Sequence record: NZ_CP137558.1 | Length of the DNA: 64,000 bases | Direction: 5' to 3' (one strand) | From: a plasmid | In this document: one piece after another, positions 15,001 through 27,000 of the stretch | How positions within the stretch are numbered: the first letter of the stretch is position 1 | How the letters are laid out: each line of letters starts with the position of its first letter | Program-made: the position numbers

Positions 15001-18000
15001 GAGGCTCCAATAAGCGGCTCATTGTCCTCGTCGCTAATGAGATGCCCTTGAACGAAGAGCATTCCTTTCTTGCTGAGAGAATCTTTCGCTTGGAGTAGGG
15101 CGATGTCGTTGGTGGTGTATTTTCGGAACTGGATAGGGATAACCTTTTCAGACTTAGGCGGTGTCGATTTGTAATATCCCTTCTGCGTGGCGCACGATGT
15201 GGCGGATGCGGTGAGGGCGGTGATGCCCAAAGCCACTCCTGCGACCTTGATGGCTTTCCCTGCCATCTGTCGGAGGTGCAGTTCGTGTTCTAAGTCCCTC
15301 ACGTCTTGCTCGCATTTCGGGCAAGTGCCCTTGCATTCGCCCTTAAAGTGGCATTCTTCGGGTGAATAACTGATTCCGTTGGCATCCGCGATCTGCTTGC
15401 GGATGGCCTTGAGCGTGTTGCAAATGTTGCGTCCTCTTGTTGCCATGATTTTTCCTTTTTTATAGTTACTGCACGTGGATGTAGACAGGAAGCGTGTATT
15501 TTGATTTCACCGCCTTGCCGTTTTGCTTGGCAGGAATCCACTTTGGCATACTTTTCACCACCCGGACGGCTTCTTTGTCAAGGTCAGAATAGACGCTTTT
15601 CTTCACTTTGATGTCATTTAGATTTCCATCTTCATTGACAATGAAACTAACGACAATTTTTCCTTGTATGCTGCAATCGCCCTGTATGTTTGGATAGCGA
15701 AAATTGTCTGCAATATATTTCATACACGCCGCTATGCCACCAGGAAATGACGCTTCCTCATCAGCATTATCAAATATTTTGCTGCTTTCAATGGAATCTA
15801 TACCAATGGCAGACCTGGTGACAGCATTCCTGCCTTGATTTTTTGAGGAATTGCCTTTGATATTCTTTTTTATCTCTTTTGTTTCTAAGGATGGATTGTA
15901 TGAAGCCTCCCCGTCCTTTCTGTTTTCTTCTTCCAGAAGTTTCTCCTTGTTGCCAAGAGAAATGGCTCCTTCTAATTGTCTGTTTCTTGGGTTCGGTTCT
16001 TCTTTTTTAACAATGATTGTATCACCTGTAACCATGTCTGAAGCATTTCGCTGTGGTTTTCCATCAGAACAAGCCGTTAAAGCAACAAGTCCTGCTGCAA
16101 TGCCAACGACCTTGATGGCCTTTCCTGCAATCTGCCTACGTCGCAATTCATACTCCAAATCTCTCACATCTTGCTCGCATTTGGGGCAAGTTCCCTTGCA
16201 CTCACCAGTGAAGTGACATTCTTCTGGTGAATAGGCAATCCCATTAGCATCTGCTATTTGTTTGCGAATGGCTTTGAGAGTGTTGCAAATGTCTCTTCCT
16301 CTTGCCATAGTTTATTTTCTTTTATGATTATGTCTCTTTTTGATAACAACAATTTCCCCTGTGAGTCCTCCACTTTCTGTCAAAGTGATAACATTGAGCT
16401 TTTCGAGGTTCATTTCAGAGAGTTTGCGTTTTCTTATCGCAGTTAAAAATGCAATAATATAGCCTATTCCAAAACAATTCTATATACTTCATATAGGCCT
16501 CTCTTTCTTTGAATTGGTTCTTTTTGAAATAAAAGAATAAATGGCATACTGGATACAAATTGGCAGGAGATTGACTATCCCCAACCAAACAAACACTATG
16601 AGGCTCAAAGATAAGGCTGCCCCATTGGTTACAACTAAGGAAATAATGCCTATCAAAAACAACGTCACAAGACTATTCAATATTATTTGTCTTTTCAGCA
16701 AAAATTCCTTTCTAACAGATTTTGCCCAAAGCCAAGCAAGCAAAGCCATACTCAAGTTAAACAAGGAAATACAAATCGTAAGCATAATGCCCATAAAATA
16801 TCCCAAGTACAAGACCACTGCAGGAATAATATAGGCAACAAATGTGGCCACAAATACTGTGAGCAAATATTTCTTTGTATCTTTATCTCTTAGTTTCATA
16901 TTACGTTCATTATATTTTACTTTGTATTGTACATTACAATGAAATGCTGTTTTATACTCATTTCCTGCTACAAAAATAACATTTTGTAGTGATAATCGGT
17001 TATAATCCCTTGAAAATCTACGATATTCTATCGTAATTTAGACAATATGAAAATAGAATCTGTAAATGTGGAACTTAAATAAATGGTTTTCTAACACAGC
17101 AAGATATATGTTTGCAATGAATATTTGTTCTTTTGCCATACTCTTGAAATGACAAAACCGGATAATTGCACAGAGTTGTGGCAAATGACAACAGATGTGC
17201 TCATGAGGGCTTAATTTTTATATCTCGTCAGTTGTTTCTACCGTACAATAGAAACATCCGCCCTTAATAATGTCATAACCAACAATTTTTTCATCTGCAA
17301 AAGCGTCAAGAACTCTTTTTGAGAAAAAGACATCAGAACCTTGTGGATATAGCAAATCTTGGTTTCTATATTTCGGTGTTAGTGTGATTCGCTTTGGGAA
17401 GTAAATATCATTGTCGTTGTAAAACTCCTTTCTGTTTTGAAATACTTTACATTTTTCATTGTATATATCAATAAACTCGCACTTAGGATAAACAAATTCT
17501 GTATCTTTAATAATCGGCACAAACAAAAGATAAAAGTCAGATGCGATGCCGTCAATTTTTATTCGCTTCAGAATGTATTCTGATTTACGAACGTGTATTT
17601 GCTCAAGTACATTTTTAACTTTTGCGCTAACAACTGCTTTCAAACTTAGGCATGCAGGCGAAAAATCCATGAAATCAACATAGTCTTTCCTTTTGATAAT
17701 TTGTCCCTCTATTTCATTGGGCATATTAATATATATGTCGTGCTTATTCTCAAAATACATCGAAATATTCCTATTTTTCTCAGACATATAGTCCAGAAAG
17801 TCCTTTGATTTTATCTTAACAGTATGTGGCATTTCGTATCTGCCTCTGATTCTTTTATCTAACGTAAATGTTATTTGATAGTACATAATTCGTTACTTTA
17901 TTAATGCATCATAGTTAATCTTTAATATTTATCTAAATCTTCAAAAGTTATATTTGTGATACCATTTTTTTCAATTAGTTCTTTAACTCTTAATGCAATA

Positions 18001-24000: not shown

Positions 24001-27000
24001 TTTTATCGTGATAATCCATCCGAATCCATTGAATATCTGCTGTATTCCGTCGTAATTTAGACAAAATAGAAATATAATCTGCAAAAATGGAACTAAGCAA
24101 TTGATTTCCCATTATGGCAAGATACATATATGCGTTTATGAATATGTTCTTTTTGCCATACTCTTAAAATGACGTTACATGAAAATTACTGTTGGTAACT
24201 ACTCTTTTACCTTTGCAAAGACTAATCTTAATATTTTGTAAAATCACAGCATAAAATGTTGTTTTTCAGAAATTAGATTTAACTTTGCACTCGAAATCAA
24301 AGCGTTCTTTGTATATTGCAAAGTTGTGAAAGAAAAAGAATATAGCTCGTTTCTAAATCGTTAGCAGTTACATTCTTTAAAATACTCAACTCGCTGATAT
24401 TCAATAAATAAAAGAATTTACTGTGACTCCTCATGTGCCAGGACAGCGGCTTGGTGATACCACATTTTTTGCCCAGTCTTTTGAGCGAATCCATACAACT
24501 TTGGTAGTTGGGTACTGGAAACACCCTGCCGTCTTCACACAATCCACGGTATTTTTCCATAATTTGCTTGGGATAATCAAGCAACTTGATGTTGGCTTCC
24601 GTTCCTGTCTTCTGTCGATGGATAACAATCCATTCACCTTCATCGAAAAATTCCTTGATGTTCTCTTCCTTCAAGTTGTACAGGTCAATGAAAGCGAGAC
24701 CTGTAAAACAACAGAACAGGAACAAGTCACGCACCATACTCATCTTCTTTCTTGTGATAGGTGTCTCCATCAACAGGTGAATCTCTTCTTTGCTCAGAAA
24801 CTCTCTTGTGGTCTCTTCTTCCTTGTACTCATATCGTCTGAATGGGTCTTTTACGAGCCATTCATTATCTATGGCACGGAATACCATTGCACGGAGATTG
24901 CGGACAAACACCATCGCAGAGTTTATCTTCAAGTGCTTGTCGGTTCTGAGAAAAGTCTCGTAGTCTGTGATAAAAGGCAGCGATAACTCTTTCAGAGCAA
25001 TATCCTTCACATGGTAATGCATCTGCAAGAACTCGCCCACATAGGCACACCCGATTCTATACTTCGTGTATGTACTCAAAGATTTCATGCCAGCCTTATA
25101 TTGCTTTTCCATTTCATCACGGCTTTGAGAATAGACTTTCATCAGTGTATGGCAACGATACTCCAAGCCAAGAAAGGCGTTCTTCACCTTGTCGGCAGTG
25201 ACGAAGTTGTCCCTGTCCATAATCTCCTGATAATGCTTACTGATACTCACACGCATCTTGTCCAATTTGCGGTTCACTTCCAAAGCCTGCATACTCTTAC
25301 CTATCATGCGTCCGCCCTTGGTGTCCCACAAATCTGGATTGGCAGTTGTCTTGCAACTGAACTGAGACTGTGTTCCGTCCACTGTGATACGTCCCATAAC
25401 TGGAACAGTACCATCTTTCTTTACTACCTGTCTTTTGAGGTAGAAGATAATTGAAAATGTACTCTTCATAACGTCATTCTTTTTTGCGTTCAAAATTAAT
25501 ACATGAAGAGTCTTTTCTTGCTACGCATTTCACGGCAGAATACGGCAAATTTGGTTCGTAACCAAAAATCTTACGTTACTCATCAGTAACTCACTATAAA
25601 TCAGAGCGTTCAAATTCAATTCGTAACCTTCCTCATTCTTCCGAACCTCAACATTCCCCATTTGGGGTATAGGTTACGGATAGGTAACGTTCCTCTGTCT
25701 CATCTTGTCGTATTCCCGTCTTCGTCTGTCCTCGCCACTTTTAACCAAAATGAGGAAAGTAACTGATTACCAGTAAACTTTCCTCATTCTTCTCTCAAAC
25801 ACTTTTTATATGCACTTTCATGTCTGAAAAGTTTATATTTAGGTTTATCATTTGCATTTTATTGCATATCTTGAAAAATAGATGTAATTTTAGGTTCGGT
25901 TAATGAAAAGAGAAGTCTGCTAGCAGTGATGCTGGCAGACTTTTTTATTGCTAGTTCTCCGGATCGAAGATTTCACCATAATATACCCAACCCTCAGTCC
26001 AGTCGTCTATCTTGACACTCGTAAGGTTCATTTCCGGCTTCATCTCGCTGTATTCCAGGTTGACAATATACTTGCCGCTCGGCTTCATCACGGGAGCTTT
26101 CAGGTCGTAGCGTGTACTGTTACCATCAGGAGTTTTGAGCACGATAAACAGATTGGTGTTTTGAACACCATCGCACGTCGGCATCAGGTACATTGTTTTT
26201 GTTACAAACATGTTATCCAACATCGTTATTCCGGAAGGAATATCGCATTCTTTCTTAGTCCTTGTTGGCGTGCCGAAAGTTCCATCTTCATTTTGCTGCA
26301 AGGCAAACAGTCCGGTGGCAACATTCAATACCTTTCCCGTGATAGCCGTATGCAGAGGAGCCCCTTTTATGTTGATGGTGAGCTCGGCAAGCACACGTCG
26401 CATTTCGCTTTTGACGATATGGTGCACATTTTCATGGTCTATGATGATGTCTGTTACACCATAATAGGCATGTTCGGGTGCTGCGTCCGTACCCGACAGA
26501 CTGATTACCAGATTGTTCATGTTGTCAACGCCTCTAGTCTGCTCACTGATGGTGAACGGAGCCACCAGGTTGGTGGTGGTGAGAATGCGATAGTGACCTT
26601 TGGGCATGTCATATCGCTCGCTTGCCATTTCCTGCGCACTGCCATGCTGGCTTTGCTCCACCAGCGTGCCATTTTCTGCATTCATGATCCACGTCTTCAC
26701 GTCCTTCACTTCCGTGCCCTCGTCGGTCTCGTCAGCCCAGTCGAGAGATATCGACAGGCCTCCGTCTCCTTCGCCATCATGCACGTCGTGGTCGCAACTA
26801 GCCAATAGGCATGGGATGCATGCCAGCACCCATAGCCAGATATTCAGTTTGTTTCTTGTTTTCATTGTCTGTATTGTTTTATGGGTTACTGTTTGGTGAG
26901 ACTGATACCCAGTCTGATGCCGCTTTCCCAGACATAGTTGTTCTTGTGCAGATATTCCGGCATGCCGTCCAGGCGTTTGCCCGTGAGTCGGGTCAATCCC

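Follow-up and report, generated by a model that had tools for sequence, protein, structure and literature searches.

A low-GC gene array in a Segatella copri plasmid record probably forms the cargo arm of a mobilizable element that entered an integrase gene

The locus analysed here is a run of genes at positions 16489-25493 of a 64,000-nucleotide stretch of DNA (the window) from sequence record NZ_CP137558.1, a 93,148 bp record annotated as a plasmid, several of whose window proteins have accessions of the form WOZ865xx. The run is co-directional on the minus strand and comprises an integrase open reading frame (ORF), an XRE-type helix-turn-helix (HTH) regulator gene, and then small AT-rich genes. 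Look-ups of exact sequence assign the window to Segatella (Prevotella) copri, a gut bacterium. The original prediction was that the locus is an rAID-like array (rAID, recombinase-associated acquired interbacterial defence): that is, a tyrosine-integrase-like gene followed on the same strand by an XRE regulator and by orphan type VI secretion system (T6SS) immunity genes separated by conserved intergenic repeats. Gene calls, Pfam matches, and base composition agree with this gene order: approximately eight array genes, all on the minus strand, lie downstream of the integrase ORF, and the array without its insertion sequence (IS) elements has a GC content of 35.1% vs. 47-49% in both flanks. Neither a tRNA gene nor an Rfam family occurs in the window, which rules out a tRNA-targeted island, and a megablast search of 16000-26000 against a plasmid collection gave no match.

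The integrase ORF at the head of the run is cut short. Its Pfam matches are Arm-DNA-bind_5 and Phage_int_SAM_5, with Phage_integrase reaching 22.2 bits, below the cut-off of 27.1. Intact homologues have 423-428 residues; the window ORF matches them up to ...PLSWHM and then diverges, so that it is cut at the catalytic HxxR box and is without the Arg-His...His...Tyr portion of the active site. DNA alignment places the break at 24430-24435, with homology to the intact gene ending at 24430, and a search of the window for the 3' remainder of the gene found it absent. The ORF is thus tyrosine-integrase-like, as had been claimed, and is not an intact integrase, the catalytic C-terminus being missing. 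An intact protein of 423 residues (P0006), 99% identical to the window integrase, is encoded at the end of a contig (L001) that carries int, four HTH_17 genes, DUF4099/DUF3945, topoisomerase, DUF1896, and giant helicase genes. This gene set resembles that of an integrative and conjugative element (ICE), and the window integrase is the 5' remnant of an ICE-type integrase; the remnant of the ICE end extends to ~25821. Many truncated proteins of 354 and 390 residues are present in databases, and they derive from two integrase lineages that are 71-73% identical to each other. Both lineages bear one and the same foreign C-terminal peptide, which led us to suspect a recurrent site-specific event.

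The DNA that follows the break supports this suspicion. The break is followed by a 7-nt variable segment and then by a conserved tail of ~125 bp, which, translated in the integrase frame, appends ...SHSKFFYLLNIS... to the truncated protein. The tail is common to ten contigs (L002-L007, L011-L014) and 56 genome loci, the latter identified with a 23-mer of the tail in a one-genome-per-species collection and distributed over at least six genera, with hosts that include Segatella, Leyella, Prevotellamassilia, other Prevotella, Phocaeicola coprophilus and P. massiliensis, Bacteroides sp., and a Muribaculaceae metagenome-assembled genome. In the contigs, tail sequence AGTCACAGTAAATTC... is joined two codons past a His codon in all truncated integrases. 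When the 56 genome loci, the contigs obtained earlier, and the window were pooled and upstream ORFs of at least 100 residues were considered (n=42), every one of the 42 terminated in ...(F/Y/W)-H-x-x at the junction, although the 42 separate into 26 clusters when grouped at 70% identity and into 21 when grouped at 50%. Most flanks that lack a long ORF still have CAY plus 5-6 nt ahead of the tail. Because the upstream ORFs end in H-x-x at the junction, the Arg codon of the H-x-x-R-H box is replaced by the junction.

The 7-nt segment varies independently of the gene that is struck. For one target integrase, the 7-mers that lie between ..CA and AGTCAC are C-ATGAGG in the window and, in other contigs, T-CTTTCA, C-GTGGCG, and T-TGCTCA; at the same site, the intact gene has C-ATGAGC and then CGTCAT. 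Integrases of the CTnDOT type leave 7-nt coupling sequences foreign to the target. The reciprocal junction is found in contig L089, in which an element left end (int1/int2-like, 72% identical; int1 and int2 are the tandem integrases described below) abuts an integrase 3' remainder, IVHVARHTNATT..., that reads IVHVARHTNATTVLLSHGVPIE. The tail also occurs inserted in int1-type genes (L062 and L093; ...TSKTYSYHSG/SHSK..., with the slash at the junction; cf. int1 of the window, 6723-7955), which indicates that family members strike integrases of their own kind. One relative, whose tail is divergent, sits in a GH31 gene as a clean, simple insertion. Separately, a 187 bp stretch of the window (1505-1691) is 97% identical to positions 8385-8571 of L017, near the right end of the GH31-inserted relative, and may be a remnant of another element copy.

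To the left of the array, on the plus strand, lies a backbone that encodes two adjacent tyrosine integrases (int1 and int2) and a mobilization module. Both integrases have the IntDOT-like architecture Arm-DNA-bind_5 / SAM_5 / Phage_integrase. The left end begins TTAACATAAAGC at 6431, and the backbone (6431-13735) recurs at 96-99% identity in nine contigs (L015-L023) with a sharp left boundary at 6431, next to three different flanks, none of which is an integrase. Array and int-int-mob backbone are contiguous in the window and, at 99-100% identity, in L006 and L012-L014. Both ends recur with differing flanks, dozens for the tail and three for the left end, and the segment encodes its own tyrosine integrases and a relaxase/mobilization module without a conjugation apparatus, as expected for a mobilizable element. 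A look-up by exact protein for long contigs carrying DUF3408 toward the left end returned only contigs of <2 kb.

We consider it likely that 16489-24428 is the variable cargo arm of a Segatella copri integrative mobilizable element (~6431-24428) that is inserted in an ICE integrase gene. The element would span ~18 kb, including two later IS elements, and its backbone would comprise the two tandem IntDOT-family integrases, the relaxase, the NikA/MobC-like protein, and DUF3408; its right end would consist of the ~125 bp tail, followed by a conserved leader block (R2) and the XRE regulator. Tail-bearing elements would enter the tyrosine-integrase genes of other elements at the codon for Arg in the catalytic H-x-x-R-H box, in a reaction presumably catalysed by an element integrase, with a 7 bp overlap that, like a CTnDOT coupling sequence, need not match the target. 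The victim in the window would be a CTnDOT-like ICE, of whose integrase gene a 5' pseudogene remains, joined to the tail. The cargo would be transcribed from its own Bacteroidetes-type promoters in R2 and in a second leader block, R1, probably under XRE control; two adjacent orphan genes of the Imm11 type, one of them IS-truncated, would neutralise nuclease-type contact-dependent toxins; and the remaining cargo would comprise a TonB_C/TonB_C/radical-SAM set, a nuclease-like protein of small size, and membrane proteins that are uncharacterised.

The window copy is not a simple insertion; that possibility was rejected, as the 3' remainder of the integrase is absent and the sequence on the left shows no relationship to the ICE integrase. 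The ICE body is missing, and the left end is of the type that occurs at sites other than integrase genes; the window copy is thus a chimera that combines this left end with a tail-type right end. The chimera is presumably the product of recombination between two element copies, an event that could also yield a circular 93-kb molecule.

Table 1. Positions in the window of the integrase remnant, the junction, the array, and the other features of the proposed element.
Feature	Position	Strand	Remarks
Truncated tyrosine integrase	24435..25469	-	~345-350 native residues; ends at His codon 24437-24435
7-nt variable coupling/overlap sequence (C+ATGAGG)	24429..24435	-	between His codon and tail
Conserved ~125-bp tail (AGTCACAGTAAATTCTTTTATT...CAAAGAACGC)	24302..24428	-	right end of proposed mobilizable element
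R2 leader block	23987..24173	-	upstream of XRE gene; TAnnTTTG box at 23997, ~25 nt ahead of ATG
XRE-family HTH regulator, 69 aa	23759..23968	-	HTH_26 1e-8, HTH_3 1e-7
314-aa membrane protein	22784..23728	-	transmembrane (TM) segment, beta domain, TM segment, C-terminal alpha/beta domain
Hairpin CUGCGGAUUGCAAGUCCGCAG	22753..22776	-	directly 3' of 314-aa gene
IS982-type IS	21467..22624	-	transposase 22590-21592, DDE_Tnp_1_3 1e-70; splits 115-aa gene
115-aa small membrane protein, 3' part	21222..21466	-	5' part ~22732-22625; split by IS982-type element
Hairpin, second copy	21195..21218	-	directly 3' of 115-aa gene
146-aa protein	20734..21174	-	PADLOC mREase_II E 1.4e-4; no Pfam match
283-aa membrane protein	19839..20690	-	no family match; in most array variants
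Imm11-family immunity gene	19364..19828	-	154 aa here, 172 aa intact; IS4-like truncation
IS4-like IS	17996..19377	-	transposase 19251-18025; DDE_5, DDE_Tnp_1
222-aa protein	17218..17886	-	Imm11/MXAN_0049-like predicted fold
R1 leader block	16968..17153	-	upstream of 136-aa gene; TAnnTTTG box at 16978
136-aa polytopic membrane protein	16489..16899	-	first gene after R1; no family match
TonB_C proteins (two)	14442-15446, 15466-16308	-	Pfam; same synteny in L006, L011-L014
Radical-SAM protein	13820-14440	-	Pfam; further cargo
Backbone	6431..13746	+	Pfam: int1, int2, DUF3408, NikA/MobC-like, relaxase, 264-aa gene
int1	6723-7955	+	full integrase domain set
int2	8019-9230	+	full integrase domain set
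DUF3408	10928-11410	+	Pfam
NikA/MobC-like	11595-12008	+	Pfam
Relaxase	12005-12955	+	Pfam, 2.5e-36
264-aa gene	12952-13746	+	downstream of relaxase

Comparison of the array across strains distinguishes between a recombinase that builds the array and a recombinase gene that received it. Ten contigs retrieved with the XRE protein form the array-context sample. All ten encode XRE and then the 314-aa, 115-aa, and 146/151/157-aa proteins, the 283-aa gene comes next in eight, and several continue with the genes for the 172-aa Imm11 protein, the 222-aa and 136-aa proteins, the two TonB_C proteins, the radical-SAM protein, the relaxase, the NikA-like protein, and DUF3408. This is the order of the window from 24.4 to 11 kb, at 99-100% identity once both IS elements are removed. 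Upstream of XRE, the contigs differ: truncated integrases of 353, 360, 258, 431, and 370 residues are present, one with a different type of N-terminal domain, and some contigs have none. One array, at 94-100% identity, stands behind at least six different truncated integrases. The occurrence of the same array behind differing integrases, and of the tail behind 26 clusters, indicates that the recombinase gene is the insertion target and not the engine of the array; the integrase ORF in the window is a pseudogene that lies outside the array proper. Strain-to-strain variability of the array, which had been anticipated, is observed, gene content differing among contigs and genomes (the XRE-314-115-146 block, constant in the ten contigs, varies in other genomes).

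Other genomes carry other genes behind the same tail. The alternatives comprise Mrr with two C5 methylases and McrBC-like proteins; AAA_5 with DUF2357/PD-(D/E)XK; an outer-membrane protein; a kinase-FHA gene with an FHA-trypsin pair; and an HsdM/HsdS-like pair, the last known from the HsdM N-terminal sequence only. In many loci having enough downstream DNA, an XRE gene lies at +340 to +460 from the tail. In the index of the contig collection, the XRE protein occurs in 2769 blocks. The tail-proximal arm, as compared across these loci, is a swap site for defence and antagonism genes, and the window array is one alternative content of it. In six loci (L003, L004, L036, L051, L058, L063), the tail is followed by a gene for a 989-aa DUF8202/Por_Secre_tail protein and then, where the contig reaches far enough, by a large toxin gene; the L003 toxin product exceeds 3000 residues and matches the RHS, SpvB, and TcdB families, and, in genome loci, the DUF8202 and toxin genes alike were identified from sequence alone. 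Another mode of carriage of the module is seen in L008-L010, where the XRE array, from 9798, has neither tail nor integrase, its homology to the window starts exactly at the R2 boundary, and it adjoins AraC and GH31 genes, with HU-HIG and McrBC genes after it.

These results bear directly on the proposal that the locus is a genuine rAID-1 cluster, in which an XerD-like recombinase dedicated to the array acquires and maintains orphan genes for T6SS immunity, with conserved recombination motifs in the intergenic spaces. rAID-1 is defined by a 5' recombinase >44% identical (E ~1e-100) to BF9343_RS08045 and by at least two co-directional downstream genes with GC <=41%, with conserved intergenic motifs and immunity-family genes as further hallmarks (Ross et al., 2019, bioRxiv 10.1101/471110). 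The window resembles rAID-1 (Ross et al., 2019; Azhieh et al., 2025, PMC12247911) in its Bacteroidales host, in a tyrosine-recombinase ORF 5' of a low-GC run of co-directional genes of 100-300 codons (~8 genes at 35.1% GC), in strain-dependent content, in the presence of some toxin-less genes of polymorphic-toxin immunity families (an Imm11 gene and an Imm11-like predicted fold), and in conserved sequence directly 3' of the recombinase ORF, namely the tail and R2, with a repeated upstream block. In rAID-1, however, one conserved recombinase accompanies the arrays, and Table S7 of Ross et al. (2019) lists identical recombinase accessions across genera; in the window the recombinase is a truncated victim, cut before its catalytic Arg, His, and Tyr, and it is one of at least six different integrases that precede the array and of 26 clusters that precede the tail. 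Homologues >50% identical to rAID-1 recombinases were found only in rAID context (Ross et al., 2019), whereas the intact form of the window recombinase belongs to an ICE-like element. Motifs separate every ORF in rAID-1; here, the sequences found between ORFs are R1 and two hairpins. Most genes of the example cluster in Table S6 have Imm assignments (Ross et al., 2019), whereas few genes here can be assigned to immunity families. The array is, moreover, physically joined to a mobilizable element that encodes integrases and a relaxase of its own, and its host genus falls outside the published list: Table S7 ends at Porphyromonas and contains neither Prevotella/Segatella nor the type strains of Phocaeicola coprophilus and P. 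massiliensis, both of which carry the tail. We therefore regard rAID-1 as a very improbable identity for this locus. We conclude that the locus is not rAID-1 in function, a distinction drawn from the role of the recombinase and not from identity to BF9343_RS08045, which was not compared. The original prediction was thus largely right in what it observed and right in part in how this was interpreted, its error being the role of the recombinase, whose association with the array is not functional: it is a truncated ICE-type remnant that differs from contig to contig.

The locus is closer to the acquired interbacterial defence (AID) clusters carried by mobile elements, although the evidence that it confers immunity is modest. 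AID-1 and AID-2 (Ross et al., 2019) likewise carry orphan immunity genes as cargo of a transferable integrative element; their genes are close homologues of GA3 T6SS immunity genes, whereas here Imm11-type candidates stand amid unrelated cargo. If the general homing hypothesis given below is correct, patterns of a recombinase followed by an AT-rich array in these genomes are insertion scars and not capture systems. Screens keyed on a tyrosine recombinase plus a low-GC co-directional run will catch loci of the present kind, in which the recombinase is a dead target and another mobile element owns the array.

The repeated blocks R1 and R2 were described from the outset as two conserved upstream blocks at ~75-80% identity, and they are confirmed: they share ~190 bp at 77% identity (BLAST E 3e-37). 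They had also been taken for intergenic repeats that separate the genes, a claim that is not supported, since R lies ahead of only two of the ~8 genes and the window has just two copies. Both blocks end in TATTTTTG, ~25 nt ahead of a start codon. The consensus of the Bacteroidetes -7 promoter element is TAnnTTTG, and the ends of R1 and R2 match it. Copies of R2 lie at +257 from the tail, preceding XRE, in ~15 other genomes; extra copies of R lie ahead of another XRE module in L007 and L050, and L008-L010 have a weak one ahead of a 133-aa gene. Breakpoints between array variants fall at R boundaries, at 24171 in L008-L010 and inside R1 in L005 and L011. R1 and R2 are thus putative promoter-bearing leaders and not repeats between every cassette, and on the simplest reading R would be a promoter/operator leader that doubles as an anchor for homologous exchange of modules. 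The copies of R at module starts and the breakpoints at R boundaries would also be expected of an integron-like cassette array with R blocks as attC-type capture sites. This alternative is the least credible of those considered, as no IntI-type integrase is present, the IntDOT-type integrases being 10 kb away or truncated; as R is not a per-gene repeat and ends in a promoter-like box close to a start codon; and as exchange at a conserved block of 190 bp is more simply explained by homologous recombination.

The two hairpins share 20 nt, TGCGGACTTGCAATCCGCAG, in identical copies at 21195 and 22753, for which the chance expectation is none, and each has a predicted stability of ~-14 kcal/mol. 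The observation that the same hairpin follows two genes therefore stands, and its designation as a terminator does not: a terminator scan did not call the hairpins, there is no U tract, and we rejected them as canonical terminators. A third copy with one mismatch lies at 29753-29772, 4 kb outside the element and 3' of a fimbrillin-like/LRR gene (29903-31675).

Immunity signatures are present in two of the ~8 array genes. The intact 172-aa copy of the Imm11 gene (L006) matches Pfam Imm11 (PF07791) with E 1.4e-8 and 34.7 bits, above the gathering threshold of 22.1, over profile positions 3-192 of 194; the window copy, which has lost its last 22 residues to the IS4-like insertion, reaches E 3.9e-4 and 20.2 bits. 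The 222-aa protein belongs to a small family (43 clusters), and its AlphaFold model is confident (predicted local distance difference test (pLDDT) 84; predicted template-modelling score (pTM) 0.84); from the fold of this model, it is a probable orphan immunity protein. Neither the Imm11 protein nor the profile of the 222-aa family retrieved a match from the sequences of solved structures; fold comparison alone was informative. The known systems closest to these two genes are Imm11 (PF07791) and the MXAN_0049/MXAN_0050 immunity-nuclease pair of Myxococcus xanthus (PDB 6a4c; PMC6627406, PMC12077131), and MXAN_0049 and the 222-aa protein share 12% sequence identity. In contrast to that pair, no toxin gene adjoins the Imm11 gene or the 222-aa gene here. 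The view that the small proteins are immunity genes thus finds support in profile searches for the intact, toxin-less Imm11 gene, and not for the array as a whole.

The other array proteins give weaker indications of function. The 314-, 115-, 283-, and 136-aa membrane proteins match nothing above cut-off in Pfam, NCBIfam, or PADLOC. The 314-aa family is narrow (22 clusters), and its AF2 model has pLDDT 69, too weak to interpret, so that fold search was uninformative. The claim of two DUF3592-like proteins is not upheld: the 115-aa protein scores E 0.04 and 15 bits against DUF3592 (PF12158), below the cut-off of 25.3, the 314-aa protein has no Pfam match, and the two show no detectable similarity to each other. 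The 146-aa protein weakly resembles small methyl-directed restriction nucleases in its sequence, and beyond this hint NCBIfam and PADLOC gave nothing for the array proteins. In L006 and L011-L014, the 136-aa gene keeps its synteny with the genes for the TonB_C and radical-SAM proteins, and the TonB_C/TonB_C/radical-SAM set is apparently driven from R1 together with it. The two TonB_C proteins are paralogous and have Cys-rich N-termini (CxxC...CxxC), and the small radical-SAM protein grouped with them (13820-14440) shows a weak PADLOC resemblance to prokaryotic viperins (E 5e-4).

An alternative to an immunity role is that the array is accessory cargo of another kind: for example, that XRE-314-115-146-283 is a membrane-associated anti-phage or abortive-infection system and that the Imm11-type genes are incidental or decaying. 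The constancy of the XRE-314-115-146 block in the ten XRE contigs would fit such a system, as would the presence in sister elements, at the equivalent place, of systems of the restriction, Mrr, McrBC-like, and kinase-FHA kinds, the weak restriction-enzyme likeness of the 146-aa protein, the truncation of the Imm11 gene by an IS element in the window, and the residence of a 222-aa homologue in a defence island that also encodes AbiEii, Mrr, and an enzyme of the MmeI type. However, the membrane proteins match no PADLOC model, the Imm11 match exceeds the curated Pfam cut-off, and complete Rhs toxin loci in other sister elements tie the family to interbacterial antagonism. We consider this alternative unlikely, although less so than rAID-1.

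Several observations weigh against the reading that we prefer, namely a cargo arm with immunity genes on an element that homes to integrase genes. The left end at 6431 is not flanked in the window by the 3' part of the ICE integrase, and the reciprocal junction was found in one contig only (L089). Neither immunity candidate has a known cognate toxin, and the 222-aa homologue in the defence island, 56% identical, is likewise an orphan and not beside a toxin. Searches of Pfam, NCBIfam, PADLOC, and predicted folds left six of the ~8 array genes without a functional assignment. Finally, the nuclease-like 146-aa protein and the restriction-type genes that sister elements carry are as compatible with defence against phages as with interbacterial defence.

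The unexpected result, which we judge more interesting than the rAID question, is that a widespread family of elements apparently homes to the catalytic-Arg codon of integrase genes. Stated in general form, the hypothesis is that Bacteroidales mobilizable elements that share the tail, and usually XRE, home to this codon in the integrase genes of other elements through a CTnDOT-like heterologous 7 bp overlap, crippling the residents and delivering a swappable defence/antagonism arm; we hold this general form to be as credible as its denial. A motif that every tyrosine recombinase must conserve provides a target in nearly every genome that holds other mobile elements. Insertion there would do the host no harm but would damage a competing element, which suggests conflict or hitch-hiking between mobile elements. 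The tail-proximal arm, and first of all its XRE-314-115-146-283 block, is accordingly a place to mine for immunity and defence functions.

Full-text literature searches on the targeting of integrase genes found only one anecdotal case, a conjugative transposon inserted in an integrase gene, in a study that describes mobilizable transposons of Prevotella bearing two integrase genes in tandem (Naito et al., 2016, PMC4755523). The MTnPi types of that study resemble the window element in two adjacent dissimilar tyrosine integrases, a relaxase module, accessory cargo, and a role in genome rearrangement; preference for the HxxR codon, a conserved tail, and XRE with a variable defence arm are not described there. 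CTnDOT and its integrase IntDOT share with the window element the Arm-DNA-bind_5 / SAM_5 / Phage_integrase architecture and a 7-nt junction segment that varies independently of the target; CTnDOT, however, uses sites of the GTANNTTTGC type, whereas the window element would target a coding motif of recombinase genes, as read from the sequences of its junctions. Tn5053/Tn402-family elements, as res-site hunters, home to the recombination loci of other mobile elements. The likeness is insertion into recombination machinery of other elements that is dispensable for the host; the differences are that Tn5053/Tn402 elements employ a DDE transposase plus TniQ and a res-site target, whereas tyrosine integrases and a coding motif are involved here.

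The two different IS transposases reported in the array belong to an IS982-type and an IS4-like element, and uninterrupted sites for both are known in other contigs. The inverted repeats of the IS982-type element have 27 nt (21461-87 and 22604-30), and its empty site is 100% identical in L006 and L012; the empty site of the IS4-like element is present at 100% identity in L006 and L012-L014. Both interrupt genes: the 115-aa gene, intact in L005-L014, is split, and the Imm11 gene is shortened from 172 to 154 aa.

Within the backbone, position 13272, which corresponds to a junction (J2) beside an integrase 3' remnant in L007 and L011, was considered as the far end of the element, and hence as evidence for a simple insertion, and rejected. 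In a metagenome scan, 53 of 53 J2-type junctions had an identical small-integrase 3' remnant, and the 5' partners varied; a single remnant shared by all 53 indicates that J2 is one fossil junction inside the element. The window has at 13261-13296, within the 264-aa gene, an 11 bp inverted repeat (CTCTTGTTTGA / TCAAACAAGAG) with a 14-nt spacer, the edge at 13272 being the fossil break; the repeat may be a site resembling an origin of transfer (oriT) or a secondary recombination site.

Three further features were noted. Positions 4541-6447 contain the gene for a cysteine peptidase of family C10 (streptopain), which bears a Spi inhibitor domain at its N-terminus, and then a lipoprotein-like ORF of 164 aa, whose 3' end abuts the element left end at 6431. 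In L015 (1-9215), a backbone copy lies beside a Type I restriction-modification locus in which hsdS genes are inverted and one ORF fuses HsdS with an integrase, a shufflon-like arrangement. A second low-GC island (30-37% GC), with GC skew of +0.20 to +0.25 and short plus-strand ORFs, lies at 34000-37000 of the window.

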